Below are positions 29,501 through 50,887 of a DNA stretch of 64,000 nucleotides, piece after piece. The notes beneath the pieces were generated by a model. That model had not been told where the DNA came from. It ran no database searches and saw only the letters and a list, made by a program, of their open reading frames with translations. A program made the translations under genes and the position numbers. The DNA is taken from the NCBI GenBank assembly GCA_964633865.1, contig CAZWIJ010000004.1, forward strand, positions 35,543-99,542. The letters are read 5' to 3'. Every line of letters starts with the position of its first letter. Position 1 is the stretch's first letter. This stretch comes from an uncultured Candidatus Saccharibacteria bacterium (GTDB lineage: Bacteria > Patescibacteriota > Minisyncoccia > SW-4-49-11).

Positions 29501-31876
29501 TTATGGTGCTGGACATGTTCCCCATAATGGCTGAATAGAATTAAATGCACCAAAAGACCATGGATTTGTTATATTATTTACACACCATCCACTTAAATCT
29601 TGAGTAAAATTATCTGCACCATTAAACATCCCATCCATATTAATTACATTTGATACATTCCAATTTCCTATTGGCTGATTAAAAGAGGTTAAATCTGTAG
29701 GGTAACCGTTTACATACAAATTTTCCCAAAGATAATCAAACATCCAGCTCATATCTGTTACACTAGATGTATTCCAACCACCTATCGGCTGGTTAAATGC
29801 TAAGGCATTACTAAACATTGAGCTCATATCTGTTACATTACTTACATCCCAACTACCTATAGACTGATTAAATACCAAGGCATAAGTGAACATTCCATCC
29901 ATATTAGTAACACTTGCTGTGTTCCAATTCCCTATTGGCTGATTAAATGATATTGCGCTATCAAACATAGATCTCATATTCGTAACACTTGATGTATTCC
30001 AATTCCCTATTGGCTGATTAAAGGCTTTTGCATTACTAAACATACCACCATAAGAGAAACTACCATCACCCCCCATATTTGTTACACTTGCTGTGTTCCA
30101 ATTTCCTATTGGCTGATTAAATACTAAGGCATTACCAAACATACCACTCATATCTGTTACACTACTTACATCAAAACTTCCTATTGGTTGATTAAAGGCT
30201 GTTGCAGAATTAAACATATTTTCCATATTTGTAACACTTGATGTATTCCAATTTTCTATTGGCTGATTAAAGGCTTCAGCAGAAGCAAAGACCCTTGACA
30301 TATTAGTTACACTTGATGTATTCCAATTATTTATATTTGAATTAAATAATATTGCACTAATAAACATACCCTCCATATCTGTTACTTGACTCATTCTTGG
30401 AATATCTGTACTACTTATATATTCCATGGCACTAGCTCCTGCAAATGCATAACGAAAGCTCTTAAATTCTATTGTTCCCCATTGTTCTACTCCTTTTAAA
30501 GCTCCTTTTGATCTACTCCATGCATAGCTCGAATAATCCCAATAATCACTTGTATATGTCAATCCTGGAAAATTTCCTACTATTGAGATAAAGGTATTTG
30601 GTGGGGGAGATATATATTCTCTAGTTAAAGTCATACTATCTCCTGCATTCTTGGTTATTCTTTGTGTATTACCTGGATCTAGACTATCATCTCCCCATCT
30701 TATTATAAAATCATATTCATATTCATCGTACAATCTGATATCCAAAAATCCTCCATTATAGCCTGCTATCTCCAATCCATCCCATTTTGTAATGAAAGCT
30801 CTATGGGTTTTTGTTGTTATATTACTTGGATTACTTGTTTCTACTATCTCTATATTTATATCTGGTAATGGATCATATATATTTGTTGTGACTGTATCAT
30901 AATTTGGATTAAATCCTATATTACAAGCTTGGCTACTTGTATTTCCTAGTATCTCATAATTACATGTATAGTTCTCTGGGTTTGTTATATTAGGGCGAAT
31001 TGTTCCATCAGGATTTATTATTATCTCTTGTTGTACTACTACACCTCCTCCACCAGAACCAACTACCACTCCACTTCCAACAGGTACACCTGCTATTACA
31101 CTGACATCTCCTAATATTATCTTTGCTATTATCTCTTGCCCCACATCTCCTGCTTGTATTGGATAGGTTGTTCCTCTTCCTACTTCTATCTCTACTCCAT
31201 TGGTATCTACTCTATACCATACTATTTCCCATTCTGTCAATACAAATCCAGCTGGGGTTAAGTTTGCTGTTAATGTATCTCCTTCATTTGTTCCTCCTGA
31301 TGAATCTATAGTAACTCCTAGTGTCATTGGGTTTAATGCTACTACATTACCCAACCCTGAATTCTTTGCTACTATACTTACTTTATTATTTGTTGTATTT
31401 ATTCCTACTAAATACCCTGTTCTGTCTTGGGGTGCCGCATTTGCTGTTTTATAGAATATGTTTTCTCCTATTCCAAACTGTAACCCTGAGTCTTTTGGTA
31501 TTTCTGCTACATAGGTTGGCACTAATACTCTTAAATCTATTAGACCATCTGTTGCACAATCTACTCCTTCATTTGCTAATATTGCATTACTATCTAACTT
31601 TCCTGTATTACATACTTCTCTATATGTTCCTTCTGTGAATCCTACTTGTGTTAATGCATCTGGATATTTACCTTCTGCTATATAATATTGCTCTATTGCT
31701 TTATTTAATTGATTTATTTCACTTGCTCTTTCTGCTTGTCTTACTTTTCCTATCTGTCTTAATGGATTTATAGCGACGATTACTATTCCCGCTAATATTC
31801 CTATTGCGGCGATAACTAATAATATCTCTAATAATGTGAAGCCTTTCTTTATATCTTTTTCAATTATTTTATTCAT
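29501..31876 (-). CDS. giant type IV pilin-like protein with C-terminal DUF285-type repeats
   Basis: 791 aa. N-terminus KGFTLLEILLVIAAIGILAGIVIVAIN is a class-III (prepilin) signal with G|FTLLE. C-terminal ~350 aa consists of ~14 tandem ~25-aa units (FNQPIGNWNTSSVTNMxxMFxxAxA), the DUF285 (PF03382) signature. Confidence 0.6.
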   Translation of the reverse strand: MNKIIEKDIKKGFTLLEILLVIAAIGILAGIVIVAINPLRQIGKVRQAERASEINQLNKAIEQYYIAEGKYPDALTQVGFTEGTYREVCNTGKLDSNAILANEGVDCATDGLIDLRVLVPTYVAEIPKDSGLQFGIGENIFYKTANAAPQDRTGYLVGINTTNNKVSIVAKNSGLGNVVALNPMTLGVTIDSSGGTNEGDTLTANLTPAGFVLTEWEIVWYRVDTNGVEIEVGRGTTYPIQAGDVGQEIIAKIILGDVSVIAGVPVGSGVVVGSGGGGVVVQQEIIINPDGTIRPNITNPENYTCNYEILGNTSSQACNIGFNPNYDTVTTNIYDPLPDINIEIVETSNPSNITTKTHRAFITKWDGLEIAGYNGGFLDIRLYDEYEYDFIIRWGDDSLDPGNTQRITKNAGDSMTLTREYISPPPNTFISIVGNFPGLTYTSDYWDYSSYAWSRSKGALKGVEQWGTIEFKSFRYAFAGASAMEYISSTDIPRMSQVTDMEGMFISAILFNSNINNWNTSSVTNMSRVFASAEAFNQPIENWNTSSVTNMENMFNSATAFNQPIGSFDVSSVTDMSGMFGNALVFNQPIGNWNTASVTNMGGDGSFSYGGMFSNAKAFNQPIGNWNTSSVTNMRSMFDSAISFNQPIGNWNTASVTNMDGMFTYALVFNQSIGSWDVSNVTDMSSMFSNALAFNQPIGGWNTSSVTDMSWMFDYLWENLYVNGYPTDLTSFNQPIGNWNVSNVINMDGMFNGADNFTQDLSGWCVNNITNPWSFGAFNSIQPLWGTCPAP

Positions 31877-31970
31877 ATATTTTTACTTATTCTTATATTT
31901 CTTTCTTGTTATTATATATTAGATTTTTATATAATATCCTTGTACTTTATTATATCATATTTTTTTCACT

Positions 31971-34832
31971 TTAAAAAACTATTCCTATCAAATAACCTGC
32001 TGCCTGTCCTTTATAATTTGTAAATGATCCTCCAAGCATAATCTTATTGTTATTTTGAATAGATGAAGTTAAAACTTGATTATTAAAGCCTGTTCCTATA
32101 TTAAAGCTATTATCTCGACTCCCATCACTGTTTAATCTTATTATTCTATTTGCAGCAGCTCCCTGATAGGTTGTGAAACTTCCTCCTATTATTAGTTTAC
32201 CGTCATTCTGAGTTGATATACTATAAACAATATTATTAAATCCTGTACCTATATTAAAACTATTATCTCGACTCCCATCACTATTTAATCTTATTATTCT
32301 ATTGACACCAACCCCTTGATAATTTGTGAAATCTCCTCCTACTATTACTTTTCCATCATTTTGAATTATTATACTTCTTACATTAGAACTAATACCTGTT
32401 CCTATATTAAAACTATTATCTCTACTTCCATCACTATTTAATCTGATGATTCTATTGGCAGTTATTCCTTGATAAGTTGTAAAACTTCCTCCTATTATCA
32501 CTTTTCCATCCCCCTGAATTCCTATAGAAAGAACTCCACCATTAAACCCTGTGCCTATATTAAAACTATTATCCCGACTTCCATTAATATTTAATCTTAT
32601 TATTCTATTGGCAGCTCCTCCCTGATAAGCTGTGAATCCTCCTCCTACTATCAACTTACCATCATTTTGTATAGATATAGAATTAACACTACCATTAAAT
32701 CCTGATAACAGATTAAAACTATTATCTCGACTCCCATCACTATTTAATCTTATTATTCTATTGACACCAACCCCTTGATAATTTGTGAAATCTCCCCCCA
32801 CTATTATCTTTCCATCGTTCTGAATATTTGTTATCAAAACATTATTATTAAATCCTGTTCCCACATTAAAACTATTGTCTCTACTTCCATTAGTATTCAA
32901 TCTCATTATTCTATTTATAGATTCTCCTTGATAGGTTATAAATTCCCCTCCTATTATTGTCTTCCCATCACTCTGACCTGTTATAGTTCTAACATTACCA
33001 TTAAGTCCTGGACCTAAATTAAGACTTGAATCTGTACTTCCATTTATATCAACTCTAATCATTCTGTTAGCAGTCAATCCTTGATAGGTTATGAAAGCTC
33101 CACCTATTATGAGTTTACTATCAGTCTGAATTAGTATAGTATTAACACTACTACTAAAACCTGTTCCTATATTAAAGCTATTATCTCGACTTCCATCACT
33201 GTTTAATCTGATGATTCTGTTTGCAGAAACTCCCTGATAGGTTGTGAAAGCTCCTCCTATAATTACTTTCCCATTGGTTGCTATATTTATACTTAATATA
33301 TTATTATTAAATCCTGTCCCTATATTGAAGCTATTATCCCGACTCCCATCACTATTTAATCTTACTATTCTGTTTAGAGTTACTCCCTGATAGGTTGTGA
33401 AACTTCCTCCTACTATAACCTTCCCATCACTTTGACTTGCTATACTATAAACAATATTATTAAATCCTATCCCTATATTGAAGCTATTATCCCGACTTCC
33501 ATCACTGTTTAATCTGATGATTCTGTTTGCAGAAACTCCCTGATAGGTTGTGAAATCTCCCCCTATTATTATTCTTCCATCACTCTGAATTGTTATACTC
33601 CTAATATTAGAACTAAAACCTGTACCTACATTAAAACTATTATCCCGACTTCCATCACTGTTTAATCTGATGATTCTGTTTGCAGAAACTCCCTGATAAG
33701 TTGTAAAACTTCCTCCTATTACCACCTTACCATCACTCTGAACACTTGAAGTAAGAATAATATTATTAAATCCTGTTCCTATATTAAAACTATTATCTCG
33801 ACTCCCATCACTATTTAGTCTTATTATTCTGTTAGCTACTACTCCCTGATAGCTTGTAAAACTTCCGCTTACTATAATCTTACCATCACTCTGAATTGAA
33901 TTGCTATAAACAATATTATTAAATCCTGTTCCCACATTAAAACTATCATCCCTACTCCCATCACTATTTAATCTTATTATTCTATTTGCACTAGCTCCTC
34001 GATAAGTTGTAAAATCGCCTACTACTATCATTTTTCCGTCACTCTGAGTTGAAATTACACGAACAATATTATCAAATCCAATAGGATCACTTATATCTAC
34101 ATTAAGATCTTTGTCACCTGAAGTTAATAGTATCGCATTCCCTCCACTATCCAGTGCTAAGGTTTTTTTTCCTAAAACTATTTTTGCTATTATCTCTTTA
34201 CCCTCATCTTCTGGCTTTACAGTATAACTCAATCCTTTACCTACCTCTGTTTCTACACCACCTGATACCGTATACCATATTATATCATCTTGATTTATAT
34301 CTAATCCAAAAGTTCCTAGTATTGCATTCAAAATATTCCCCACAACATTAACTCCACTTATCTCTAATGTTATATCCATTGGATTGATTGATATTAAATC
34401 TCCTAATTGAGCCTTATCTGCCCATAAACTTATTTTATTAGTAGCAGAATTAACCCCTATTTTATATCCTCCTTCTTTTGGATCTCTTGGTATTGATCCT
34501 ACATAATCTGGAACTAATAATCTTAAATCTACTTTACCAGTACAATCTATGATTCCATTTTCTGTTGTCTCATTTTTTGTATCACAAATTTCTAAATAAT
34601 TTCCGACTGGTATTCCAGATGGATACACCCCATTACTAATATAATATTGATCTAATGCTTTATGAATTGTGTTTATCCCAGACCATCTACTAGCATTATC
34701 TGCTTTCCCTAACTGTATAAAAGAATTAATAGCTACTACTGCGATTGAAACTATTAATCCTATTATTGCTACTGACAACATTATTTCAAACAAAGTGAAA
34801 CCTTTTTTATTTATTTTTATTAATTTCTTCAT
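31971..34832 (-). CDS. giant type IV pilin-like protein with ~14 delta-60/beta-propeller-like repeats
   Basis: 953 aa. Prepilin N-terminus KGFTLFEIMLSVAIIGLIV. Shares a conserved ~200-aa N-terminal module with the 791-aa neighbour. Then ~14 tandem ~50-aa units (GTGFNNxVxSIxIQSDGKIIVGGSFTTYQGVSANRIIRLNSDGSRDNSFNI) resembling delta-60 repeat / DUF5122. Confidence 0.6.
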   Translation of the reverse strand: MKKLIKINKKGFTLFEIMLSVAIIGLIVSIAVVAINSFIQLGKADNASRWSGINTIHKALDQYYISNGVYPSGIPVGNYLEICDTKNETTENGIIDCTGKVDLRLLVPDYVGSIPRDPKEGGYKIGVNSATNKISLWADKAQLGDLISINPMDITLEISGVNVVGNILNAILGTFGLDINQDDIIWYTVSGGVETEVGKGLSYTVKPEDEGKEIIAKIVLGKKTLALDSGGNAILLTSGDKDLNVDISDPIGFDNIVRVISTQSDGKMIVVGDFTTYRGASANRIIRLNSDGSRDDSFNVGTGFNNIVYSNSIQSDGKIIVSGSFTSYQGVVANRIIRLNSDGSRDNSFNIGTGFNNIILTSSVQSDGKVVIGGSFTTYQGVSANRIIRLNSDGSRDNSFNVGTGFSSNIRSITIQSDGRIIIGGDFTTYQGVSANRIIRLNSDGSRDNSFNIGIGFNNIVYSIASQSDGKVIVGGSFTTYQGVTLNRIVRLNSDGSRDNSFNIGTGFNNNILSINIATNGKVIIGGAFTTYQGVSANRIIRLNSDGSRDNSFNIGTGFSSSVNTILIQTDSKLIIGGAFITYQGLTANRMIRVDINGSTDSSLNLGPGLNGNVRTITGQSDGKTIIGGEFITYQGESINRIMRLNTNGSRDNSFNVGTGFNNNVLITNIQNDGKIIVGGDFTNYQGVGVNRIIRLNSDGSRDNSFNLLSGFNGSVNSISIQNDGKLIVGGGFTAYQGGAANRIIRLNINGSRDNSFNIGTGFNGGVLSIGIQGDGKVIIGGSFTTYQGITANRIIRLNSDGSRDNSFNIGTGISSNVRSIIIQNDGKVIVGGDFTNYQGVGVNRIIRLNSDGSRDNSFNIGTGFNNIVYSISTQNDGKLIIGGSFTTYQGAAANRIIRLNSDGSRDNSFNIGTGFNNQVLTSSIQNNNKIMLGGSFTNYKGQAAGYLIGIVF
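32050..34130 (-). repeat. in-frame tandem ~150-nt coding repeats with near-identical copies
   Basis: Example: an 85-nt stretch (aaaactattatctcgactcccatcactatttaatcttattattctattgacaccaaccccttgataatttgtgaaatctcc) occurs near 32253 and again near 32703. ttaaatctgatgattctgtttgcagaaactccctgata recurs near 33201, 33501 and 33651. Confidence 0.7.
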
Positions 34833-34868
34833 AATTATTGATTTCTTCTTATTGATATCTACTTCTAA

Positions 34869-35693
34869 TTATATCATATTTTTACTATCTTTCACTTGTG
34901 GATTATTTTTATATTGAAGGATAAGTTTTGTATATTCAAATGTTGCTGTATAAATTCTTTTTATTCTTCTAGGTTCTATAATTAATCTCCACAGCCATTC
35001 TAATCCTATTTTTTGAATTAAGATAGGTGCTCTTAATTTTTCGCCTATAAAAAAATCTAAAGTTCCACCAAAACAAAATATAATTGTTTTAGCTTTTTTA
35101 CCAACAAGATATTTTTTTAGATTATTAGCAAAAATTTCTTGCTTGGGTGGTGATAATGCTAATATTACAATTTCAGCTTTTGATTGATATATTTTTTCAA
35201 ATAATATTTTATCATTTTCTTTTATAATATCATAATACTGTCCTACCAAATTTATATTTTTATATTCATTCTCTATTTTTATTTTACTTTTATCAGAAAC
35301 TTCTTTAGTACCACCAACAAGGTATATACTTCTACTACTAGAATCTACTATCTTTAATATATCATAAAATAAATCTGATCCACTTATTTTTTCTGGAAAA
35401 ACTTGATATAACTCAGAATTTCTAGTAAGTATATAAAATAATGATTTTACAAAAGATATATTATTATTTAGATATAATCCTGCCCAAAGTATTCCCACCC
35501 CATCAGCAATAGAAATATCAGCTTCATCTAATGCTCTTTGAAATTTTCGGTTATTCTCTGCCATTACAATAAATTCAGAATAAGGTGTCACAACATAATA
35601 TACATAATCTTCATCTAACATTGATTTTAGATTATTAATTAAAACTTCTTTAGTAAAAGTTTGTATTCCAACTTTACCTACATATCTCTTCAT
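34869..35693 (-). CDS. WecB/TagA/CpsF-family glycosyltransferase
   Basis: 274 aa with the PF03808-type layout (…DGVGILWAG…, …CFGGTLD…). 36 bp upstream of the giant pilin-like gene on the same strand. Confidence 0.6.
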   Translation of the reverse strand: MKRYVGKVGIQTFTKEVLINNLKSMLDEDYVYYVVTPYSEFIVMAENNRKFQRALDEADISIADGVGILWAGLYLNNNISFVKSLFYILTRNSELYQVFPEKISGSDLFYDILKIVDSSSRSIYLVGGTKEVSDKSKIKIENEYKNINLVGQYYDIIKENDKILFEKIYQSKAEIVILALSPPKQEIFANNLKKYLVGKKAKTIIFCFGGTLDFFIGEKLRAPILIQKIGLEWLWRLIIEPRRIKRIYTATFEYTKLILQYKNNPQVKDSKNMI

Positions 35694-35695
35694 AT

Positions 35696-36589
35696 TTATT
35701 TAAAATCACTTTTTATAGATAAAAATTCTGTTACATCTATATTGCTTAGATCTTTTTCAACCAAGGATATTTTATCTTTAAAAAATTTTTCATCAAAACT
35801 TGAAGTATTCTGATTTTGATATAAAATTCCTAATGGAAACTTCTCTCCTTCATCTATTTCTATAGATTTTATCAAGGCTTGTGTTTTATCTTGAGGATTA
35901 TAACCTATATCTTCCAAATTATAACTTTTAGTTGAATAAAAACTATAAGTATTTATGTAATTATAAGTAACACATGGCTGATAAGCATTTACAAAAGAAA
36001 AACCTTTATGTAAAATTCCTTGTTTGATCATTTGTGTCAGATGTTTAACATTACCTGCGAATCCAGAAGCTACAAATGTAGCATTAGCACTAATTGCTAA
36101 CATAGAAGGGTTAAGAGGATTCTCTACTATTTCATCTATACTCATACCTGATTTATAATCTGTATCTGAAGTAGAAGAATTTTGTCCTTTCGTAAGTCCA
36201 TATACTTGATTATTATGCAATAAAACTGTTATATCTATATTTCTTTTACAGGCATGTATAAAGTGTTGTAGACCTTCTGATAGCAATCCCCCGTCTCCAC
36301 CTATAACAATTACATTTAATTTATGATTAGCTAATTTAACTCCTTCTGCTATTGGAATAGATCTCCCATGTAGTCCATTGAAATGATTATATTCCAACCA
36401 ATAAGGCATTTTGCCAGAACAACCTACATCTCCTACTAAAACTATATCGTATTTAGGAATGTTTAATTCAGTAATTGCATTTTTAAGTGCAACCCAAATA
36501 CCAAAGTTTCCGCAACCAGGACACCAATTTGGTTTATCCTGTGTTGTATATTTAGCAATATTTTCTTCTTCTAATTTAGTATTATTCAT
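35696..36589 (-). CDS. korB: 2-oxoacid:ferredoxin oxidoreductase, beta (TPP-binding) subunit
   Basis: 297 aa. N-terminal WCPGCGNFG and GDVGCSG, GGDGG TPP-binding motifs. Confidence 0.75.
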   Translation of the reverse strand: MNNTKLEEENIAKYTTQDKPNWCPGCGNFGIWVALKNAITELNIPKYDIVLVGDVGCSGKMPYWLEYNHFNGLHGRSIPIAEGVKLANHKLNVIVIGGDGGLLSEGLQHFIHACKRNIDITVLLHNNQVYGLTKGQNSSTSDTDYKSGMSIDEIVENPLNPSMLAISANATFVASGFAGNVKHLTQMIKQGILHKGFSFVNAYQPCVTYNYINTYSFYSTKSYNLEDIGYNPQDKTQALIKSIEIDEGEKFPLGILYQNQNTSSFDEKFFKDKISLVEKDLSNIDVTEFLSIKSDFK

Positions 36590-36597: not shown

Positions 36598-38352
36598 TTA
36601 AAGTAATTTTTTGTGTATAAATCTAACAATTTCTTCTGGGTAAAATGGTTCTCCATTATATTTCAATAAATGTTCATCAGCCAAGAATCCAATTTTCTCT
36701 TTCAGTAGTCCAGCAAACTGTCCTGTAAAATTATTCTCTACGATAACAACTTTATTTAAATTTTCTAAAATAGGTAATAATTTTTTTTCATCTAATGGAT
36801 ACACATATATAAAATGTATTACATTAATTGAAATCTCTTGTTCTTCTAGAATTCTACCTGCTTCAATACATACATTTTTATTTGATCCCCAACAAATGAT
36901 AGTTATATCTGTTTTATCTTTTCCATAAATAATAGGCTTTGGTATTTCTGGTAAGACAGATTTTTCTTTTGACATCCTCTTATTCATTTGTTCTATTCTA
37001 TTTTCAGGATCTTCACAAAGTTGACTTAATTGATTATGTTCATCTGAAGTTGACGCTGTGATTAATCCTACTATTCCTGGAAAAACTCTTGGAGAGACTC
37101 CATCCTTAGCTAATTCATACCTTCTATATTCATCTGCTCCTAATTCTTTAGCAGATTTTATAATAGAACCTCTTTCTAAAAAAACTTTATCGAATTCGAA
37201 ATCTTCAAATATCATTTTTGAATTAGATAAATATTCATCTGATAAAATAATAACTGGTAACTGATATTTATCTGCCAAATTAAAAGCTTTTTGTGTATGA
37301 TAAAAAGCTTCTTCCGAATCTCCTGGTGCTATTATTATCCGTGGGAATTCACCTTGAGATGAATGTAATACAAATCTTAAATCTGATTGCTCTGTTTTAG
37401 TTGGAAGACCTGTACTAGGCCCTCCTCTCATAGCATTTAGTACAACTAAAGGGGTTTCAGACATACCAGAAAATCCTATTGTTTCAGTCATTAAAGAGAA
37501 TCCTCCTCCTGAAGTCATTGTCATTGATCTTACCCCAGAATAAGAAGCTCCAATTGTCATATTAACAGCTGAGATTTCATCTTCAGCTTGGAGACATAAA
37601 ATATTATATTGTTTAGATAATTTATTTAATGATTCAAAAGTTGGAGTTGCAGGAGTCATAGGATAAGCTGAAACAAAACTCACACCTGATCTTATAGCCC
37701 CTAATGTAATTGCATCTGATCCAGTTAATAGAACATGTTGCATCTCTTTATTTATATTAGGATTGAATATCTTAGGAGTTTTAATATAATTATTTTTAAT
37801 ATAATTATATCCATTTTCCAAAGCTTGGAGATTATTTACGAAAATTTTTTCTGATTTCTTTTTATATTTTTTTGTTAATATATTATTCATAACAGATATA
37901 TCCATTTTTAAAACTGAGATTAAAGCACCTATACCAATAGTATTTATATAAAAATTAGTTTTTTCTATTTCTTTTGATAACAGAGATAAGGGTATTCCAA
38001 TTGGGTAAAATTTTTGTTTAAAATTAGGCTTTGGTAAAAAACTTTCTTTTATTATTCCACTATCATAAATAAGAATGCTATTAATAACTAAATCTTTTTT
38101 ATGAATTTCAATAGAATCCTTATCTAAAGCTATAAGTATATTAATTTTTTTATCTGCATTTTTAATTCTTTCTTCAGACACTCTAATCATGGAAGAATTA
38201 GGACCTCCTTTTATTAAGCTAGCATAGTCTTTCCAATTAAAAGTATATAAACCTAAATTATAAAAATATTCTTCAATAATGGATCCCATACTCAAAACTC
38301 CTTGTCCAGCTTTTCCAGCTACGGTAATCTGGATTTGATTTTTTATTTGCAT
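36598..38352 (-). CDS. korA: 2-oxoacid:ferredoxin oxidoreductase, alpha subunit (fused gamma/alpha domains)
   Basis: 584 aa. POR/KOR alpha-type domains. 8 bp upstream of korB. Confidence 0.75.
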   Translation of the reverse strand: MQIKNQIQITVAGKAGQGVLSMGSIIEEYFYNLGLYTFNWKDYASLIKGGPNSSMIRVSEERIKNADKKINILIALDKDSIEIHKKDLVINSILIYDSGIIKESFLPKPNFKQKFYPIGIPLSLLSKEIEKTNFYINTIGIGALISVLKMDISVMNNILTKKYKKKSEKIFVNNLQALENGYNYIKNNYIKTPKIFNPNINKEMQHVLLTGSDAITLGAIRSGVSFVSAYPMTPATPTFESLNKLSKQYNILCLQAEDEISAVNMTIGASYSGVRSMTMTSGGGFSLMTETIGFSGMSETPLVVLNAMRGGPSTGLPTKTEQSDLRFVLHSSQGEFPRIIIAPGDSEEAFYHTQKAFNLADKYQLPVIILSDEYLSNSKMIFEDFEFDKVFLERGSIIKSAKELGADEYRRYELAKDGVSPRVFPGIVGLITASTSDEHNQLSQLCEDPENRIEQMNKRMSKEKSVLPEIPKPIIYGKDKTDITIICWGSNKNVCIEAGRILEEQEISINVIHFIYVYPLDEKKLLPILENLNKVVIVENNFTGQFAGLLKEKIGFLADEHLLKYNGEPFYPEEIVRFIHKKLL

Positions 38353-38461
38353 AAATTTTTATTGTTAATAGTTTAATATCTATATTATACTATATTTATA
38401 TTATTTTTTCTACATAAAAAAAGACAAGTTTTTACTCTTATCTTTTTTTATTAATTAATTT

Positions 38462-40435: not shown

Positions 40436-40444
40436 ATGTTTTAA

Positions 40445-40678: not shown

Positions 40679-40684
40679 AAATAA

Positions 40685-41338: not shown

Positions 41339-41393
41339 AAATTTATATTAATTATTACACACTATATTATATATTATAGCAAATTTTTTTAAA

Positions 41394-43644: not shown

Positions 43645-44751
43645 TTATAACCCATATCTTCCACGGAGAGCATCAAAGTTCTGTTGAATTTCTGGTCCAG
43701 TGAGAGCTTTATCATACACTTTAATAGAATAAATATCTCCTATAATTCTTCTAAAAGAACTTGATCTTTCATCACCAAAGGAAGTTATATTAGAAAAATT
43801 TGAAGGTGTAGATACTAAAGGTTGAGAAACTCTTTGGACTCCATCAACATAAGCCGTTTGATTTACCCCATCCCAAGTAAGAACAATTTGCCTAACAGTA
43901 TTTGAATCTCCTATTATACCAGTTCCCATATTTAACCAAGAACCATTAAATGAAGCATAAATTTCTCCATTCTGCAAAGGTTGACTAGCTACAGTATTTC
44001 CAGCATATCCAATTCCAAGGTAAGCAGTTCCAATCCAATTATTCAAACTATTATTATGTAATATATATCCAATCCCAACATCAGAACTTGGAGAAGAAAT
44101 AGCTTTAACCCAAACTTCATAAGTCTGAGGTGAATTAGATGTTATAGGAGATGTAAAAGTTCCTCTATCATCAATTCCATCAAATGTCAAAGAACCTTGA
44201 TTAGCAGAATTAAAACCTACTCCATTCAAAAGAGTAGCATCATTTCCAATACTTGCTAAATTTGTCCAATTAGTTCCTGCTCCAGGATATGATGATGGAT
44301 CACCAGCATCCAAATTTAAAACTAATCCATCAGTAACTATACTATTATTTACTTCTACAAAATTTATAACCTTATTCCAAGAAGTTACTTCTACAGCTAA
44401 TCCTATACTTACAATACCTACAAATCTCTGAACAAAATCATCTTTATCTATCCTTATTTCTAATCTTTTCTCTGTAGGTGAATTATCACTTACACTATAA
44501 GTACAGGTTCCACTAACAACATCAGTAGCTGTATAACTAGTATCATTGAAAATTTCAAGCAAAATATTTTCTCTACAATTAATTGCATCTGATTCTATTA
44601 TAACTTGTGTATTATTGGAATAATTTCTATAGATAGATTCGAAACTCATATTAAATAAAGTTAAACTTATACCCAAGGTAACTGTCATTATTATTAGAAC
44701 TGTCATTAATGTAATATATCCTTTTTTCATAGATTTAGAGTGTTTTATCAA
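43645..44751 (-). CDS. pilin-like protein fused to ConA/LamG-like lectin domain
   Basis: 368 aa. Pilin-like N-terminal TM (KKGYITLMTVLIIMTV). C-terminal LVLNLDAGDPSSYPGAGTNWTNL...GSLTFDGIDDRG...YEVWVKA matches the LamG/ConA-like (PF13385-type) pattern. Confidence 0.5.
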   Translation of the reverse strand: MIKHSKSMKKGYITLMTVLIIMTVTLGISLTLFNMSFESIYRNYSNNTQVIIESDAINCRENILLEIFNDTSYTATDVVSGTCTYSVSDNSPTEKRLEIRIDKDDFVQRFVGIVSIGLAVEVTSWNKVINFVEVNNSIVTDGLVLNLDAGDPSSYPGAGTNWTNLASIGNDATLLNGVGFNSANQGSLTFDGIDDRGTFTSPITSNSPQTYEVWVKAISSPSSDVGIGYILHNNSLNNWIGTAYLGIGYAGNTVASQPLQNGEIYASFNGSWLNMGTGIIGDSNTVRQIVLTWDGVNQTAYVDGVQRVSQPLVSTPSNFSNITSFGDERSSSFRRIIGDIYSIKVYDKALTGPEIQQNFDALRGRYGL

Positions 44752-45208
44752 AATTTAGTTGATATTTTAGTGTTTGTCTACTATTAGTAAGGTATGTGGC
44801 ATCCATATTGACTGTAATAGAATCATTATCTATCGTTCCTTTATTCTCAAATAATAAATTTGTAATAGAAATTTCATCTATATGTAAAGGAATTATCCCG
44901 TTAACACTACTTTCTACAAAAATCCCTGATTGAACTTCATATGTATAAGTAATACCTCCACTAACTAAAACTAAACTAGTTTGACTTGTATTAGGAGTTG
45001 GAGAAGTAATACTAGTTGCTGTATCTATTCTATGAGATATATGTTGTAGAGCTGCATCTGTCCCCATTTGAACTTGATTCATAGCAAGGGTTTTTTCTCT
45101 AACTGTAATTGTTGTAACATATACTTGTGATAGAGCTAGTGTTACAACTCCAATTAAAGATACCCCTAACATCAACTCTAATAATGATAAACCTTTTTTC
45201 TTTTTCAT
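44735..45208 (-). CDS. pseudopilin / minor pilin
   Basis: 157 aa. KKKGLSLLELMLGVSLIGVV prepilin N-terminus. Overlaps neighbours (operon). Confidence 0.55.
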   Translation of the reverse strand: MKKKKGLSLLELMLGVSLIGVVTLALSQVYVTTITVREKTLAMNQVQMGTDAALQHISHRIDTATSITSPTPNTSQTSLVLVSGGITYTYEVQSGIFVESSVNGIIPLHIDEISITNLLFENKGTIDNDSITVNMDATYLTNSRQTLKYQLNFDKTL

Positions 45209-47304
45209 TATGGTATTATTAAACTAGCTGGTTTTGTTGTCCCATCACTGAATACAAGAATAAAACTAAGAGTACTTCCAGCAGATAATGCTCCATTAAA
45301 TCTAAATTCCAAAGGATAATCTGCATAAAGATCAAAATCTGTGATATTAGCATTATAAGGTGAAGTATTATTATAACTACCAGCAGTAGCATTATTAACA
45401 CGAATACTACTTAATCTTCGATTTCCAGTACTATTCCAAGTTATATTGTTTATATTTGTAACTCTAACTCTACAACCAGAATTATTTCTAATTCTTATAT
45501 TGCTTAAATTCCTTCTGTTTCCCGATATTGTAATTTGAGACACATCTACAGTTGTAGTATTCGCCTGATTCGTACATAAATTTATGTCTGTACTAAAATT
45601 AAATGAAGGTACTACATAAGATGACCCATCAGCAAAGACTAATCTAAACGAATTATTACTATTAAAAATTGTTCCAGAAAACTGAAAAAGTAATTCTTGA
45701 GTATTCTCTATATTTGTATTATTGATAGGAATATTTCTACCCAAAACTGTATCTCTAGTTAGATTCCCAGTCCATACATTAAGAGAATTGTCAGTTCTAT
45801 TAATAAATTTAGGTCCAATTTTAATAGAAGCTAAATTAACATTTGTGGTCCAAATAAATTCATTAATATCGGTTAAAACAACTGGACAAGCTGTTCCTGT
45901 AGTATTAACTAACTCTATCCCCCTTATTATCCTATTATCGGAAGTTAGGCTATTTGAAGTAGTATCAGGGAAAGCGGTATTTATGATATTAGCCTGGAAA
46001 TTTTGAGCTTGAGTATTAGAAATACAAGGATCTATTGGTAAAGAAATTATACCACTATCAAGTGTTGATCCATCAGTAAAGACTACTGTGAATGAGATAT
46101 TTTGTGCAGTCATTGGAGCATTGTATTGTAAAACTAACTCCTTAGTGTTTGTTATAACTGTATTTGTAACATCAATATTATGACCTGGACTAGACAAAGG
46201 AGCTAAATTACCTGTCCATACATTAACAGTATTATTTAAATCTCCTATTTTGATTGCTGATAGGTTATTACTTTGCCATAATAAAGAGTTTATGCCGTCT
46301 ACCTCAATATTACAAGTTGTACCTGTATTATTAATAAGTCTTATTCCTCTTATCATTCTATTTTGACTTACACCTATAGAATCAAATGACCAATTACTGG
46401 TATCCAAAGTTGTATTCTGTGCTTGAGTGAATACACAAGGATCTAAATCAGAATAAATCACTCCACTATTCAAAACTGATCCATCACTAAATATTACCGC
46501 GAAAGTTAAACTCTGCCCCGTCATCTGACTATCAAACAAAAATGCTAGTTCATGAGTTCCCGTTATATCTTGATCATTTATATCTATATTTTTATTTGAA
46601 GGAGACTCTGTACCAGACCAAATATTAAAGTTGGAGTCTAATTTGTCAAAACCTTCTGCTCCAAATTTTACATTGGTTAAGTTATTATTTTGCCATTCAA
46701 CAGAGTTTATATTTGTTGCTTGAATATTACAATCACTAGAATTATTATTAATTAATCTTATTCCTCGAATTAAGCGAGATCTATTAGATGGAGAATTATC
46801 ATTGGTAGCAGATTCTATAGAAAAACTACTTATGTCTAATGTAGTATTCTCAGCCTGAGTACCTAAACATGTTATCAAAGGTTCTTGCCAACTTTTATAT
46901 GTTACTTGAGAAGATAGACTATCACCTCTTCCATTTTTACCAATCCAAGTGATATTGATAACAGCTTGTACCGTATCAGAATCTGGTTGAGTTAGAGTTA
47001 CTGATCTTTGGTAGTCTCCTAAAGTTTCTACTCCAGAAATTAATGCCCAATTACTTCCAAGTGTAAATCCAAGCGGTGTCGCAGTAGAATAACCAACTAA
47101 TCTATCATATTTCAAAGTATCTAATGCTCTTGTAGCTTCTTGCAAATATTCATAACCTTGTGTCCTTTCTCCTTTAACAAGAATACTTCTTTGATATTCT
47201 GTAATTGTTCCAACTATACCAACAATTACAAAACCTGTTAAGCCTATTGATAAAACTATTTCTAATAATGAAAAACCTTTATTTTTTTTAAATAACAAGC
47301 CCAT
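45208..47304 (-). CDS. large minor-pilin-like protein with 4 internal ~125-aa repeats
   Basis: 698 aa. KNKGFSLLEIVLSIGLTGFVIVG prepilin N-terminus. Four tandem repeats each containing R(M/L)IRGIRLINN..(S/T)xC...NIN...W...L..(V/I)K.G. Confidence 0.5.
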   Translation of the reverse strand: MGLLFKKNKGFSLLEIVLSIGLTGFVIVGIVGTITEYQRSILVKGERTQGYEYLQEATRALDTLKYDRLVGYSTATPLGFTLGSNWALISGVETLGDYQRSVTLTQPDSDTVQAVINITWIGKNGRGDSLSSQVTYKSWQEPLITCLGTQAENTTLDISSFSIESATNDNSPSNRSRLIRGIRLINNNSSDCNIQATNINSVEWQNNNLTNVKFGAEGFDKLDSNFNIWSGTESPSNKNIDINDQDITGTHELAFLFDSQMTGQSLTFAVIFSDGSVLNSGVIYSDLDPCVFTQAQNTTLDTSNWSFDSIGVSQNRMIRGIRLINNTGTTCNIEVDGINSLLWQSNNLSAIKIGDLNNTVNVWTGNLAPLSSPGHNIDVTNTVITNTKELVLQYNAPMTAQNISFTVVFTDGSTLDSGIISLPIDPCISNTQAQNFQANIINTAFPDTTSNSLTSDNRIIRGIELVNTTGTACPVVLTDINEFIWTTNVNLASIKIGPKFINRTDNSLNVWTGNLTRDTVLGRNIPINNTNIENTQELLFQFSGTIFNSNNSFRLVFADGSSYVVPSFNFSTDINLCTNQANTTTVDVSQITISGNRRNLSNIRIRNNSGCRVRVTNINNITWNSTGNRRLSSIRVNNATAGSYNNTSPYNANITDFDLYADYPLEFRFNGALSAGSTLSFILVFSDGTTKPASLIIP

Positions 47305-47698
47305 ATTGATTTATATTAATTATTTTGTCTATTGTAAGATTTATTGTAGTATCAGTTGAAAGTCCTGTCACTCTATCAAATGTAACTATAATTGGAGATC
47401 CCATACTTATATTTTTCAAATCATAAATCTGATCAAAATTTGTATCTCTATTATTATAATCATCTCCCAAAAAAACTATTGCTGATGAAGAATCTATTCT
47501 TACAGACCAATCAGAATCCTCCAATCCAAATACAGCTTTTTCTCTTGCCACTCTTAGAGCTAAAATTACATTAATTTCTGAATTTCTCTGTTCATTTTTT
47601 TCTATCACTTCTATAGATATTGGAAGGGAAAAGGATACTAATATTCCAATAACAGCAATTGTCAACATTATTTCTAATAAAGAAAATGCTTCTTTCAT
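47288..47698 (-). CDS. pseudopilin / minor pilin
   Basis: 136 aa. MKEAFSLLEIMLTIAVIGILVS (FSLLE with hydrophobic helix; Ala rather than Gly at -1). Confidence 0.5.
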   Translation of the reverse strand: MKEAFSLLEIMLTIAVIGILVSFSLPISIEVIEKNEQRNSEINVILALRVAREKAVFGLEDSDWSVRIDSSSAIVFLGDDYNNRDTNFDQIYDLKNISMGSPIIVTFDRVTGLSTDTTINLTIDKIININQYGLVI

Positions 47699-47699: not shown

Positions 47700-48743
47700 T
47701 TACAATCCTTTTAATAATGAATACATAGGTCCTATAATAGAATAAGCCAATCCCAAAACTGCAAACCAAACTATAATCAGAATAGCTGGTTCTAATATGC
47801 TTGGAATAGATTTTGCTAATCTATACAATTCTTTCTCATATCTTATACCTATTTTTTGAAACACAGTTAAAAAACTTCCTGATTTTTCTGCAAATACAAT
47901 CATAGCAGGAACTTGATCAGGAAACAGCATTTCTGTTTCTGGAATAGATTTGATAACTTCATCCATTGTTTTTCCTTCATCTATTAAATCTATAACTTTT
48001 TGATAATACTCCTTATAATAATGATTATCAGAAACTCCTTTTAATAAAGTTAAAGCTTCTGTAAAAGGATATCCAGCATTTAGTAAGCTTCCTAACATAT
48101 ATCCCATTCTTGATGATTCTGCTGATATAACAATTTTTTTTATTAGCGGTGTAGATAATTGTATTCTCTCACCAATAAATTTAGTTTTCTTATTGAAAAA
48201 TAAAAAATAAAAAGCAATTAACATAAATAAAACTACAGCTGGAACAAAAATCATTCCCCACTTAGCAAAAAAATTTCCAATAGAAATTAAAATTTGTGTT
48301 TGAATTGGTATTTCAACTCTCAAAACTAAAAATGATTCTGTTAATTTTGGTAAAACAAACCACATAATTCCAAGCCCAACAAAGAAAGTTGTTAATAAAA
48401 CAAATACAGGATAGGTTAACACTGTAATAATTTTATTATTTAAAGAGAACCTTTTTTCTTCATTAATCAGAGCCAGTTTGAAATTTTCTTGTAGACTACC
48501 ACTTTCCTCGCCTATCTTAATAAGAGAAACCACATAATGTGGAAATATTTTATTTTTATCAAAAGACTCCCATAATAAATTTCCTTCTTCAACTAAACTA
48601 ACCACATTTTCAAAAGCTTTTTTTAAATCTTTATCTTTTATTTTTTTCGATACTTCTGAAATAGATTCTACTATAGATATCCCAGATTCAGACAAATTAT
48701 AAATATTTTCTAATGCATAAAATGCTTGTTTTTGATTTATCAT
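47700..48743 (-). CDS. pilC: type IV pilus / T2SS inner-membrane platform protein (PilC/GspF family)
   Basis: 347 aa. Two T2SSF-like domains with 3 TM segments. Directly downstream of pilB. Confidence 0.8.
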   Translation of the reverse strand: MINQKQAFYALENIYNLSESGISIVESISEVSKKIKDKDLKKAFENVVSLVEEGNLLWESFDKNKIFPHYVVSLIKIGEESGSLQENFKLALINEEKRFSLNNKIITVLTYPVFVLLTTFFVGLGIMWFVLPKLTESFLVLRVEIPIQTQILISIGNFFAKWGMIFVPAVVLFMLIAFYFLFFNKKTKFIGERIQLSTPLIKKIVISAESSRMGYMLGSLLNAGYPFTEALTLLKGVSDNHYYKEYYQKVIDLIDEGKTMDEVIKSIPETEMLFPDQVPAMIVFAEKSGSFLTVFQKIGIRYEKELYRLAKSIPSILEPAILIIVWFAVLGLAYSIIGPMYSLLKGL

Positions 48744-48747
48744 ATAT

Positions 48748-50445
48748 TTACTCTTTTAAAAATTTTTCTGGAATTTTTACAACTCTAACCAATTCTTCAA
48801 AGTTAGTAATTCCTTTTTTTACTTTATCCAATCCATCCTCAAACATAGATATATATTCTTCCTCATTTATAATTGACTGTACTGATTTTATATTCTCAGC
48901 TAAAGCATCTTTCATATCATGAGTAATAGCTAAAACTTCAAATACTGCTGTTCTTCCTTTATATCCAGTAAATCCACATTCTCTACACCCTTTGCCATTA
49001 AAGACATTTATTTTAGTTTTTGGAAAAACTTTAAATATACCCGGAACAATCTTTTTTAACTCCGCAATAGACATTTCTTTACTATATTTACAATGAGGAC
49101 AAATAGTTCTAATTAGTCTTTGAGAAATAATTAAATCTATAGTAGATGAAAGTAAAAATGGCTCTATGCCCATGTCATAAAGTCTAGGTAAAGTAGATAT
49201 AGCATCATTTGCATGAAATGTAGATAAAACTAAATGACCAGTTAAAGCAGAGTTGACCGCAATTTCAGCTGTTTCATTATCTCTTATTTCACCAACTAAA
49301 ATAACATCTGGATCTTGTCTAACAATCGATCTTAAAGCTTTAGCAAAAGTTATATTTTTTTGCTCATTTACTTGAATTTGATTTACTCTGTCTATTCTAT
49401 ATTCTACGGGATCTTCAATAGTAGTAATATTGACTTTAGTATCAATCAAATCTCTAATAGCAGCATATAGAGTTGTTGTTTTTCCTGACCCTGTAGGACC
49501 ACTTACTAAAATTAGCCCGAAAGGATTTTTTAGATTATCATTAATTAATTTAAAAGCTTTATCAGATAAACCTATAGAATCTAAACCTAAATCACTTACA
49601 TACCTAAATAGGATTCTAACAACAACTTTTTCACCATCCATAACTGGAGCAACCGAGATTCTCATATCAACCGTTGTGTTTTTTTTAGTCAAATACCTGA
49701 TTGAACCATCCTGAGTTTCAAAATGCTCATCAAGTCTTAATTTAGAAAGTACTTTTAATCTGTTAACAATATTCTCATAAAAATTTTTAGGCAGAATACC
49801 AATATCATGCAAAACTCCATCTATACGAAATCTAATAACAACATCTTCCGAAAATGGTTCAAAATGTATATCAGAAGCTTTTTGAGCAAGAGCATCTTCA
49901 AATATTTCTTTCACTATGTCAGGAACAACTTGCTCTCCTTTTGATACAATTTCAGATATTCTGTCAGAAAAATTATTTTTATATAATAAAAAGGAATCTT
50001 CTATTGAATTTGGCAAAGAATAACCTAATTTAACTTCTTTATCAGGGAAAATTTCTTTTATTATAGAAATTAACTTTTCATCAGGATTACTAGTGGCCAC
50101 AAATATTTCCATCTTACTCTCTGCAAAAGGGACTATTTTATATTTATTAGCTATGTCATAATTTATTTTTTTTACTAAATCTGTACTTGGAGGAAATGAT
50201 TTTAGATCAAATAAATTTAGAGAATAAAACTCAGACATAGCCTGACCAACAAGGTCTGATGTTACTATATTAGAAGATATTAATATAGTATAAGCTTCAT
50301 CAAAACTTTTATCAGAGAAATCTACCTGTAAATCATCAATATCATCTTGCTCAATATAATTTTGTTTAACAATGATATTAACAAGGTCTAGACCTGTTAT
50401 CTCTTTAATTTCTATTTCTTTATTTTTAAAAATTGGATTTTGCAT
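48748..50445 (-). CDS. pilB: type IV pilus assembly ATPase (PilB/GspE family)
   Basis: 565 aa. Walker A SGPTGSGKTTTL, Asp box, Walker B ILVGEIRD, His box LVLSTFHAN, tetracysteine CPHC...CREC motif. Confidence 0.85.
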   Translation of the reverse strand: MQNPIFKNKEIEIKEITGLDLVNIIVKQNYIEQDDIDDLQVDFSDKSFDEAYTILISSNIVTSDLVGQAMSEFYSLNLFDLKSFPPSTDLVKKINYDIANKYKIVPFAESKMEIFVATSNPDEKLISIIKEIFPDKEVKLGYSLPNSIEDSFLLYKNNFSDRISEIVSKGEQVVPDIVKEIFEDALAQKASDIHFEPFSEDVVIRFRIDGVLHDIGILPKNFYENIVNRLKVLSKLRLDEHFETQDGSIRYLTKKNTTVDMRISVAPVMDGEKVVVRILFRYVSDLGLDSIGLSDKAFKLINDNLKNPFGLILVSGPTGSGKTTTLYAAIRDLIDTKVNITTIEDPVEYRIDRVNQIQVNEQKNITFAKALRSIVRQDPDVILVGEIRDNETAEIAVNSALTGHLVLSTFHANDAISTLPRLYDMGIEPFLLSSTIDLIISQRLIRTICPHCKYSKEMSIAELKKIVPGIFKVFPKTKINVFNGKGCRECGFTGYKGRTAVFEVLAITHDMKDALAENIKSVQSIINEEEYISMFEDGLDKVKKGITNFEELVRVVKIPEKFLKE

Positions 50446-50494
50446 ATATTTTAGTTATTTTTAATGGTTTTATTTATTATATCAAATTTTTTAT

Positions 50495-50887
50495 TTATTT
50501 ACTATCATATAAATAAAAGTTTACTATTTCTAATATTTTATTTAAAGGCATCTCCGATTTTATATAATAAGCTGTTGCCCCAAGATCTTTAACTCTTAAC
50601 TTGTCTTCTGGTTGACCTAGATTAGATAGAATAATAATAGGAATCTCTTTATTTTTTTGTCTAATAGCTTTTAGCACTCCAAATCCATCTATTTCTGGCA
50701 CAATTAAATCTAAAAGGACTATATGTATATTAGAATCAAACAAATTAATAGCCTCTCTTCCATTATAAGTTGTGAGAATATCATAACCTGCTGATCTTAA
50801 CTTTAATTCCAAAGCCTTAGCTAAAGGCTTTTCATCTTCACAAATCAAAATTTTTCTCTTATTATCTAATTTTTCTATTTTATCCAT
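50495..50887 (-). CDS. single-domain response regulator (CheY/PilH-like receiver)
   Basis: 130 aa. Receiver fold with phospho-acceptor Asp in VLLDLIVPEIDG. No output domain. First gene of the pilus operon. Confidence 0.75.
   Translation of the reverse strand: MDKIEKLDNKRKILICEDEKPLAKALELKLRSAGYDILTTYNGREAINLFDSNIHIVLLDLIVPEIDGFGVLKAIRQKNKEIPIIILSNLGQPEDKLRVKDLGATAYYIKSEMPLNKILEIVNFYLYDSK

Follow-up and report, generated by a model that had tools for sequence, protein, structure and literature searches.

Four modules, probably juxtaposed rather than joined in function, in a 21-kb gene run of a Saccharibacteria contig, one of them a type IV pilus operon with its own receiver, PAS protein and kinase

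Almost all of the Candidate Phyla Radiation (CPR)/Patescibacteria have type IV pili, and the few members in culture cannot move, or find or bind host cells, without them. To our knowledge, nothing is known about the regulation of these pili in Patescibacteria. Here we analyze a window of 64,000 nt (64 kb) from contig CAZWIJ010000004.1 of an uncultured Candidatus Saccharibacteria bacterium, in which a 21-kb run of minus-strand genes (29501-50887) contains a type IV pilus operon, two-component genes, two giant pilin-like genes, a 2-oxoacid:ferredoxin oxidoreductase (KorAB), a WecG-type glycosyltransferase and a few further genes. An earlier note, made from the sequence alone, had taken this run for a single functional supercluster. 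We consider it likely that the region is instead a set of four juxtaposed modules in a small, strand-biased Patescibacteria genome, not one functional unit.

The type IVa pilus operons of Patescibacteria, such as the loci of Saccharibacteria TM7x, share with our locus PilB, PilC, four 'core' minor pilins and a small major pilin, as well as minor pilins with lectin or beta-propeller domains, which are thought to mediate host binding (PMC11623550). In TM7x, a propeller-bearing minor pilin is needed for host binding (PMC11623550). The first TM7x locus also has PilT, PilM/N/O and PilD, none of which is found in our window, and its description mentions neither a receiver nor a kinase. The giant cargo pilins of our window lie outside the pilus operon. 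These giants resemble the modular pilins, in which a class III signal/pilin module is fused to a functional module not related to pili (Raynaud et al., 2021, PMC8179133). Both carry the N-terminal motif TIGR02532/IPR012902 and an extra domain that is not pilus-specific. Pilin-DUF285 (IPR005046) and pilin-delta-60 (IPR013431) architectures, with CPR examples, have already been catalogued (PMC8179133, Dataset S1). In comparison, the giants described here are larger than most (791 and 953 aa, the latter with 13 propeller repeats), use a full major-pilin-like module with a shared linker, and are known from sequence alone.

Regulation of pili by a two-component system encoded beside the pilus genes is represented by PilS-PilR of Pseudomonas, Myxococcus and Geobacter. 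PilR, of the NtrC type, joins AAA+ and HTH domains to its receiver and activates sigma-54 promoters, and PilS is a kinase with six transmembrane (TM) segments that senses pilin in the membrane. In contrast, the receiver in our window has 130 aa and no other domain, and the kinase, referred to as HK421, has no TM segment. Output-less receivers associated with type IV pilus function are also known, namely EmvR (PMC11973254), DrdR (PMC13507683) and PilG/PilH. EmvR of Xanthomonas binds PilB and represses the PilB ATPase (PMC11973254), and DrdR, from the same genus, binds both PilB and PilT and stimulates both (PMC13507683). The genes of EmvR, DrdR and PilG/PilH are orphan or lie in chemosensory clusters, whereas the receiver gene described here lies within the pilBC operon. 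Furthermore, PilG/PilH of the Chp system receive their signal from a CheA-type kinase, whereas the kinase here is a classical HisKA/PhoR-WalK-like enzyme, and domain scans of the window gave no match to CheA, CheW or MCP.

Full-text literature searches found no link of Patescibacteria or Parcubacteria pili with two-component systems, and neither a receiver nor a kinase is named in the principal papers on Patescibacteria pili and genetics. A conserved, pilus-embedded, output-less two-component set thus appears to be undescribed within the searchable literature. We see in it a variant of established pilus regulation rather than a system of a new kind, and the pilus operon, the modular pilins, KorAB, WecG and the cyclophilin likewise belong to known kinds.

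The run comprises 18 genes on the minus strand, 17 open reading frames (ORFs) of at least 130 aa and one conserved ORF of 77 aa, with intergenic distances from -17 nt (overlap) to +109 nt. The ORF listing and Pfam/NCBIfam scans confirmed all gene names given in the earlier note, and its description of one-strand genes with short gaps from 50887 down to 29501 was borne out. A supposed gap of 249 nt (40436-40684) contains the 77-aa membrane ORF, which leaves 109 nt as the largest true gap. One more gene, an aminotransferase at 28053-29267 beyond a terminator, continues the run on the same strand.

In the four-module reading, module 1 (50887-41394) would be the standard type IV pilus operon of the lineage with a receiver, a PAS protein and a kinase. 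Module 2 (41338-38462) would consist of a cyclophilin, the 77-aa protein and a putative wall-binding protein, with its own promoter-like site and a conserved terminator at its end. Module 3 (38352-34869), KorA-KorB-WecG, would represent an older syntenic trio of housekeeping genes, and module 4 (34832-29501) would hold two modular pilins, both built from a full pilin module, a linker and a large repeat cargo and each preceded by a promoter-like site of its own. The genes of module 1 are as follows.

50495-50887, minus strand: stand-alone receiver, 130 aa (Pfam Response_reg, 1e-18)
48748-50445, minus strand: PilB-type extension ATPase with an MshEN-like N-terminal domain (T2SSE, 3e-118; MshEN, 1e-8)
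47700-48743, minus strand: PilC/GspF platform protein (T2SSF, 1e-37, two stretches)
47288-47698, minus strand: GspH-like minor prepilin, 136 aa, cleavage motif A/FSLLE (weak N_methyl match)
45208-47304, minus strand: large minor prepilin, 698 aa, no known domain (N_methyl motif only)
44735-45208, minus strand: minor prepilin, 157 aa (N_methyl, 3e-5, above cut-off)
43645-44751, minus strand: PilX/GspK-like minor pilin without Glu5, with a Laminin_G_3 (ConA-like lectin) module (Laminin_G_3, 1e-9)
43145-43597, minus strand: candidate major pilin, 150 aa, cleavage motif KKG/FTYLE (same operon position as the pilins of relatives)
42652-43140, minus strand: soluble PAS protein, 162 aa, with a MIGRELKMIELKK coiled-coil C-terminus (TIGR00229, 4.5e-8)
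41394-42659, minus strand: soluble histidine kinase HK421, 421 aa, with coiled coil, PAS, HisKA and HATPase regions (HisKA, 7e-18; HATPase_c, 4e-26)

A PilB/GspE ATPase, a PilC/GspF platform protein and class III prepilins, the hallmarks of a type IV pilus, are all present in the window. PilB matches TIGR02538 at about 1e-144, under the equivalog cut-off. The window holds eight prepilin-like ORFs, in which the class III motif (G/F-x-x-x-E followed by a hydrophobic helix) can be read from the translations. The genes of the kinase and the PAS protein overlap by 8 nt.

To place this operon among its relatives, we used a GTDB-wide PilB scan, which gave 68 loci, mostly from Phycisphaerales or Acidimicrobiia, these being taken as negative controls. 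The scan found no close species representative of the window organism. The nearest Patescibacteria matches are 45-58% identical in PilB, and the best full-length ones, at 45-50% identity, come from Patescibacteria metagenome-assembled genomes (MAGs) of Falkowbacteria, Paceibacterota and Parcubacteria. We compared the window proteins with nine Patescibacteria PilB loci (PilB 45-58% identical) by tblastn and ORF maps. In these loci, a receiver, PilC, pilins like the 136-aa and 157-aa ones, pilins of about 150 aa and an HK421-like kinase occur in the same order, and tblastn found no match to the cyclophilin, the 657-aa protein of module 2, KorAB or WecG. The constant layout starts with a receiver of 122-130 aa, PilB, PilC, a GspH-like minor pilin, a large minor pilin and a third minor pilin, and ends with a PilX-like pilin without Glu5, one to three pilins of about 150 aa, the PAS protein and the kinase. 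The PAS protein of the relatives is a membrane protein of about 510 aa with a MINRELKMMDLKK-type coiled-coil end, the same motif as in the 162-aa PAS protein of the window, and their kinase has about 690 aa with TM, HAMP, PAS, HisKA and HATPase regions.

In 16 loci (6 from GTDB and 10 from metagenomes), the receiver gene ends -18 to +72 nt from the start of pilB, and a receiver beside pilB was found in 0 of about 55 PilB loci from outside Patescibacteria. The receiver, the PAS protein and the kinase therefore co-occur with pilBC and pilins across distant Patescibacteria, and the remaining genes of the run do not. The earlier statement that the pilus genes are flanked by a receiver and by a PAS protein with a kinase holds, and the layout recurs even where PilB is only 45-50% identical. 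This set, travelling with pilBC and pilins, provides a concrete and testable candidate for pilus regulation in Patescibacteria.

Separately, we notice that most PilB loci of Phycisphaerales/Planctomycetota (L020-L077) carry a different histidine kinase gene directly upstream of pilB. In addition, a 547-kb contig (L010, CAZXEE010000001.1) has a Patescibacteria-type receiver-pilBC-pilin-PAS-kinase operon with three tandem major pilin genes; its record title, 'uncultured Gammaproteobacteria bacterium', is probably a wrong label.

The full order of the run is kept at a much shorter range. Two sister species, represented by the loci L007 and L078 (about 79% nucleotide identity), keep the order, L007 without the DUF285 pilin, and only these two keep the order of modules 2-4. 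The window population itself recurs at 99.8-100% nucleotide identity in several JGI and ENA metagenomes, and those homologues of the 657-aa protein and of WecG that carry an organism name belong to Candidatus Parcubacteria, Doudnabacteria and other Patescibacteria MAGs. Conservation of gene order, which the earlier note had offered as a check, thus stands for module 1 and, apart from it, for KorAB-WecG in distant relatives, and fails beyond the genus for the order as a whole.

That note suggested one pilus/adhesin supercluster under two-component control, a reading in which the run would be one operon or regulon, WecG might glycosylate the giant pilins or link them to a wall polymer, and korAB would be a foreign insertion. 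The order kept in two sister species, the co-oriented genes and the short gaps speak for it. At about 79% nucleotide identity, however, synteny is expected by default, and distant relatives keep only the pilus/two-component part and, separately, KorAB-WecG. Co-orientation is also weak evidence for a unit: about 80% of the window genes lie on the minus strand, the GC skew is negative nearly throughout (GC content 25-33%), and the window holds a second unbroken minus-strand run of 17 genes (5435-21207) with unrelated functions, including a Mur ligase, Rpe, G6PD, a flippase, a LOG-family protein, glycosyltransferases, HisRS, a signal peptidase, RadC, RuvX and ParB. For these reasons, the co-orientation and tight spacing of the 21-kb run are not beyond chance.

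Transcription signals were compared along the run. A generic sigma-70 promoter scan was uninformative, as its counts equalled those of shuffled sequence in this AT-rich DNA, and it was replaced by a test of the extended -10 motif TGNTATAAT. This motif occurs 25 times in the window, against 12.3 +/- 2.8 in shuffles, and by reading of positions 11 of the 25 sites are intergenic and upstream of same-strand genes. The standard terminator scan demands three G-C pairs and missed an A/T-rich hairpin at 38.4 kb. A lenient scan (perfect stem of at least 7 bp, loop of 3-8 nt, T-rich tail) gave 10 matches in the 64 kb, and it is considered specific because 9 of the 10 fall in the 8.5% of the DNA that is intergenic. 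Within the region, the minus strand has only two of them, one behind the 657-aa gene and the other behind the DUF285 pilin. The signals in the run are as follows.

50476-50484, minus strand: extended -10 site TGATATAAT in the gap between the receiver and pilB (motif scan)
41373-41381, minus strand: extended -10 site TGCTATAAT upstream of the cyclophilin gene (motif scan)
38422-38443, minus strand: terminator-like hairpin with T-run in the gap between the 657-aa gene and korA (lenient scan)
38412-38384, minus strand: promoter-like site TAGAAA-17-TATAAT after the 38.4-kb hairpin (sequence comparison)
34868-34876, minus strand: extended -10 site TGATATAAT over the WecG stop codon, upstream of the DUF5122 pilin (motif scan)
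31949-31957, minus strand: extended -10 site TGATATAAT between the two giant pilin genes, before the DUF285 pilin (motif scan)
29307-29324, minus strand: terminator-like hairpin with T-run ending the run (terminator scans)

The 38.4-kb hairpin is kept in L007 and L078 by compensatory changes in the stem, and TAGAAA-17-TATAAT follows it in all three species. L007 has a hairpin homologous to the one at 29307-29324 directly after its DUF5122 pilin. Of the promoter-like sites, TGATATAAT stands at the matching place before the cyclophilin gene in L007 and L078, and TGTTATAAT in the corresponding gap between WecG and the DUF5122 pilin of both. On the basis of these signals, two terminator-bounded units are predicted, one from the receiver to the 657-aa gene and one from korA to the DUF285 pilin, with internal promoters.

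Operon prediction, the other check proposed for a single unit, thereby went against it, since a terminator and a promoter split the run before korA, with further TGNTATAAT sites in four gaps. Within the second unit, no terminator is predicted from korA to the DUF285 pilin, which speaks for the single-unit interpretation. In view of the conserved break before korA and the lack of modules 2-4 in distant pilus loci, we regard one functional supercluster as very improbable. In the four-module reading, the wider 'supercluster' would be a product of a compact, co-oriented genome layout and of no importance itself. As an observation for annotation, TGNTATAAT sites and A/T-rich hairpins with T-runs are usable signals in this lineage.

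The association of the kinase with pili was examined from the opposite direction by scanning metagenomes with a kinase alignment (A1), which gave 80 loci; metagenome loci carry no taxon assignment. Among full-length kinase homologues (N-terminal coiled coil and PAS matched, at least 7 kb on both flanks), five of six are linked to pilus genes, as compared with 5 of 12 for matches to the kinase core only with the same flanks. Two layouts appear in the kinase loci, receiver-pilBC-pilins-PAS-kinase and PAS-kinase-receiver-pilBC.

The receiver and the kinase look functional, because the catalytic residues are present. In the translated receiver, the phospho-acceptor set is E17-D18, D60, S88 and K110, and in the kinase, H182, N298, D337/G339/G341 and G367/G369/G371 (H, N, G1 and G2 boxes) are invariant in the alignment. 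No output or DNA-binding domain of the receiver was found in Pfam or NCBIfam, and the NCBIfam matches to OmpR-type regulators are confined to their receiver part. The PAS protein and the kinase of this genus are soluble, having lost the N-terminal membrane, extracytoplasmic and HAMP regions of their relatives (compared with L015, 16976-20588). The MIGRELKMIELKK motif at the C-terminus of the PAS protein recurs in L015, L010, L067 and L016.

How the receiver acts is suggested by its context. The kinase would phosphorylate the receiver, as their conserved co-location suggests, and the phosphorylated receiver would act on the motor of the pilus through direct protein contact, PilB being the most likely target. 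A signal of cytoplasmic or contact-derived origin may in this way gate the extension of the pilus. Two features make action on the motor the most likely route, the lack of an output domain in the receiver and the position of its gene next to pilB; for want of a DNA-binding output, control is also more likely to fall on the machinery than on pilin transcription. The two-component control of pilus and adhesin genes proposed in the earlier note is accordingly kept in part: the coupling to the pilus stands and probably runs via the PilB motor, while control of transcription is not favored by a receiver without an output domain.

Extending this to the whole group, we tentatively propose a Patescibacteria-wide pilus operon with a built-in minimal circuit, in which a PAS protein, a PAS-kinase and an output-less receiver that binds PilB switch extension, for example on host contact; we hold this as a plausible candidate, somewhat short of an even chance. 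Patescibacteria retain about five two-component systems per genome (PMC7137472). One such system devoted to the pilus is notable because there are so few, and if the proposal is true, it would be a dedicated post-translational controller of a key organelle of host attachment in these reduced epibionts.

Stand-alone receivers frequently act as phosphate sinks or relay steps, as CheY2 and Spo0F do. The set could accordingly be associated with the pilus while the receiver serves as a sink or a phosphorelay intermediate, the output being a DNA-binding regulator elsewhere that controls pilin transcription. Branched signalling is suggested by L011, which has two kinases and two further receivers downstream, and by tandem receivers in L082, L133 and L136, and the receiver is closest to OmpR-family receiver domains. 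On the other hand, ORF maps of the conserved pilus operons show no DNA-binding regulator, the tight and often overlapping junction of receiver and pilB in the 16 loci suggests the motor as partner, and EmvR and DrdR are direct precedents for control of PilB by a receiver. We therefore judge the sink or relay role unlikely, and prefer action of the receiver on PilB.

Several observations weigh against the four-module reading and the roles given to its parts. The association is lacking in L013 for the kinase and in L156 and L161 for the receiver. In the genus of the window, receiver and pilB lie 49 nt apart with a promoter-like site in between, whereas the two genes abut or overlap in relatives. 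No peptidase A24 match, and thus no PilD, was found among window ORFs of at least 100 aa, and the 64-kb window has no PilM/N/O or PilT, which may be encoded elsewhere. The lenient scan found no terminator between the kinase and cyclophilin genes or between WecG and the giant pilins, so that co-transcription of each pair is possible; read-through between the two predicted units is also possible, the signals being sequence predictions. Finally, at 790-950 aa, incorporation of the giants into a filament is a prediction.

Homologues of the 136-aa GspH-like prepilin occupy the same operon position in L010, L011, L013, L018 and L067, and those of the 157-aa minor prepilin are found in L010 and L012. 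The 150-aa candidate major pilin aligns end to end with the 143-160-aa pilins of relatives. For the Laminin_G_3 pilin, the likely ATG start is at 44730, giving 361 aa, as in public gene calls. The 698-aa prepilin is described as four units of about 140 aa with one Cys pair each (146/192, 290/331, 427/473 and 577/611), a description based on the spacing of the Cys pairs and on a doubled tblastn alignment to L007; self-BLAST of the protein gave no off-diagonal matches. Its ortholog in L007 (2289-5246) has 985 aa, and the number of units therefore varies between species.

Module 4 contains the two giants.

31971-34832, minus strand: modular prepilin, 953 aa, with a pilin module, a linker of about 65 aa and 13 delta-60/DUF5122 beta-propeller repeats (DUF5122, 4e-179; N_methyl)
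29501-31876, minus strand: modular prepilin, 791 aa, with a pilin module and linker followed by DUF285/PARCEL repeats (DUF285, 9e-116; TIGR02167)

Both have Gly-1, Phe+1 and Glu+5 and match TIGR02532 above cut-off; the 791-aa protein also matches TIGR02167 above cut-off. Their first 150 or so residues align end to end with the major pilins of Patescibacteria (alignment A3), and a shared linker domain of about 65 aa comes next. In the gene of the 953-aa pilin, a 153-nt unit is repeated 13.1 times and DUF5122 matches in 13 stretches. The array is hard to assemble, and the copy number of 13 should for that reason be taken cautiously: an identical contig (ERZ22298166 NODE_709; L001, 16799-16900) has an unaligned break of about 100 nt inside the 153-nt array, with a truncated gene call. 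A single-sequence structure model of the 953-aa pilin reached a predicted local distance difference test (pLDDT) score of 43 and was not used.

An exhaustive search with the N-terminal part of the giants gave 583 cluster representatives at E <= 1e-10. Of the best 150 among these, 120 are longer than 300 aa (median 387 aa), and GFTLxE is present in 146. Among 110 that were scanned for cargo, Laminin_G_3 occurs in 27, Gly_rich_2 in 14, DUF5122 in 12 and SBBP propellers in 7, with Lcl_C, RCC1, Flg_new, PA14, fn3 and others besides. Given these lengths and the diverse cargo, the pilin chassis is mainly a cargo carrier. The DUF285 pilin is absent from L007, a sister species with 87% protein identity, which shows that the giant pilins are species-variable. 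The adhesin repertoire would in this way vary on one pilin chassis, with interchangeable cargo domains gained or lost between sister species.

For the giants, the simplest reading is that of modular pilins which present adhesive cargo on the pilus. They would be processed by prepilin peptidase and displayed on the pilus or at its tip as interchangeable adhesins for attachment to host cells. Their size (791 and 953 aa), their distance of 9-19 kb from the pilus operon with promoter-like sites of their own, and their dispensability in a sister species fit another explanation, namely that they are not pilus subunits and that the class III signal and helix serve only to export or anchor surface adhesins in the membrane, or to prime short pseudopili. 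Against this stand the complete pilin module (Gly-1, Phe+1, Glu+5), which aligns end to end with major pilins, the experimental demonstration that modular pilins are part of pili in S. sanguinis (PMC8179133), and the contribution of a propeller-bearing minor pilin to pilus-dependent host binding in TM7x (PMC11623550). A role apart from the pilus hence seems quite improbable to us, and display of cargo on the pilus is preferred.

The giant pilin genes (30000-34000) have a GC fraction of 0.32-0.33, compared with about 0.26 in most of the window. This could come from a foreign origin or from the composition of the Gly/Ser/Asn-rich repeats. A further prepilin of 147 aa (N_methyl; 53021-53464, minus strand) lies outside the run, adjoins an FtsX/MacB-type permease (53487-54773) and is 32-35% identical to major pilins of relatives.

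The giants are preceded by module 3.

36598-38352, minus strand: 2-oxoacid:ferredoxin oxidoreductase alpha subunit with a fused gamma domain, KorA-like (POR, POR_N, Transketolase_C)
35696-36589, minus strand: 2-oxoacid:ferredoxin oxidoreductase beta subunit, KorB-like (TPP_enzyme_C, PFO_beta_C)
34869-35693, minus strand: WecG/TagA/CpsF-family glycosyltransferase (PF03808, 9e-39)

WecG exceeds the curated cut-offs of both PF03808 (133 bits against 27.4) and TIGR00696 (119 against 69). Its neighborhoods in distant relatives are KorB-WecG-GluRS-M23 peptidase at 45% identity, KorA-KorB-WecG-acyltransferase at 38% and WecG-GluRS-M23 peptidase at 35%. KorB-WecG or KorA-KorB-WecG thus occurs without pilins in L079 and L080 (WecG 38-45% identity), and no pilin lies 3' of wecG in L079, L080 or L081 (35-45%). 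Because the trio is kept without pilins in distant relatives, KorAB-WecG is an old adjacency and the giant pilins downstream are recent. This reverses the suggestion that korAB was a metabolic insertion: KorA-KorB-WecG is the older block, and it is the giant pilins that vary, as the absence of the DUF285 pilin in L007 indicates. The trio is a conserved pairing of an oxidoreductase with a wall-polymer glycosyltransferase.

The proximity of WecG to the giants had led to the idea of pilin glycosylation or of a link to a cell-wall polymer. Enzymes of the WecG/TagA family work in the cytoplasm on lipid-linked GlcNAc and are not known to modify proteins. Domain scans of the 64-kb window gave no PglL/TfpO-type (Wzy_C) oligosaccharyltransferase, and the pilins have no Ser/Thr-rich tracts, for which the earlier note had advised a search. 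With wecG lacking a pilin neighbor in the relatives, the idea is not supported, and these points also count against the single-unit interpretation.

Module 2 lies between the pilus operon and korA.

40685-41338, minus strand: cyclophilin-type peptidyl-prolyl isomerase with an N-terminal hydrophobic segment, exported or membrane-anchored (Pro_isomerase, 3e-49)
40445-40678, minus strand: 77-aa membrane ORF, missed in the earlier note (called in public contigs)
38462-40435, minus strand: secreted 657-aa protein with six EccB-like repeats of about 60 aa and a C-terminal beta domain (AF2 model, Foldseek)

The 77-aa ORF has 65% identity in L007 and no Pfam match. The 657-aa protein starts with a signal or TM helix, and its AF2 model has a pLDDT of 87. 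Its six repeats superpose on those of EccB1 and EccB5 of type VII secretion (Foldseek, 1e-8 to 1e-6), whereas the gene has no type VII secretion context. The C-terminus weakly resembles double-psi beta-barrels (DPBB; Pa4485, p97 N domain, loosenin and kiwellin, E 0.015-0.04 by Foldseek). No Pfam/NCBIfam family matches the protein, including DPBB_1, SPOR and EccB. The former label of an RlpA-like repeat protein is therefore supported only as a weak likeness to RlpA/expansin-type barrels at the level of fold; the DPBB_1 and SPOR domains that mark RlpA-like lytic transglycosylases have no match by sequence, and the repeats are EccB-like.

In homologues, the same repeats are fused to Amidase_2, SNase (thermonuclease) and S8/S11 peptidase domains, and for this reason they look like a wall-targeting module; the 657-aa protein is a putative cell-wall binding or remodelling protein. 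Homologues of about 50% identity (L008, 10001-13575; L009, 10001-13593) have an Amidase_2 paralogue as neighbor, with type IV secretion genes (PrgI, TrbL) close by, and neither pilus genes nor KorAB occur in their loci. Although large, the family keeps its gene context only within the genus in the synteny anchor test, and the genes of module 2 are linked to pilus genes only within the genus as well.

The tRNA and Rfam scans gave no match within 29501-50887. Outside the run, a terminator-like hairpin on the plus strand (21631-21652) has no plus-strand ORF of at least 100 aa upstream and no tRNA or Rfam match there; it could mark a small gene or RNA. An ATPase of 801 aa (59257-61662, minus strand) resembles a type IV secretion coupling protein (TrwB_AAD_bind, TraG-D_C, HerA-like), and its gene sits upstream of an ABC-2 transporter pair.

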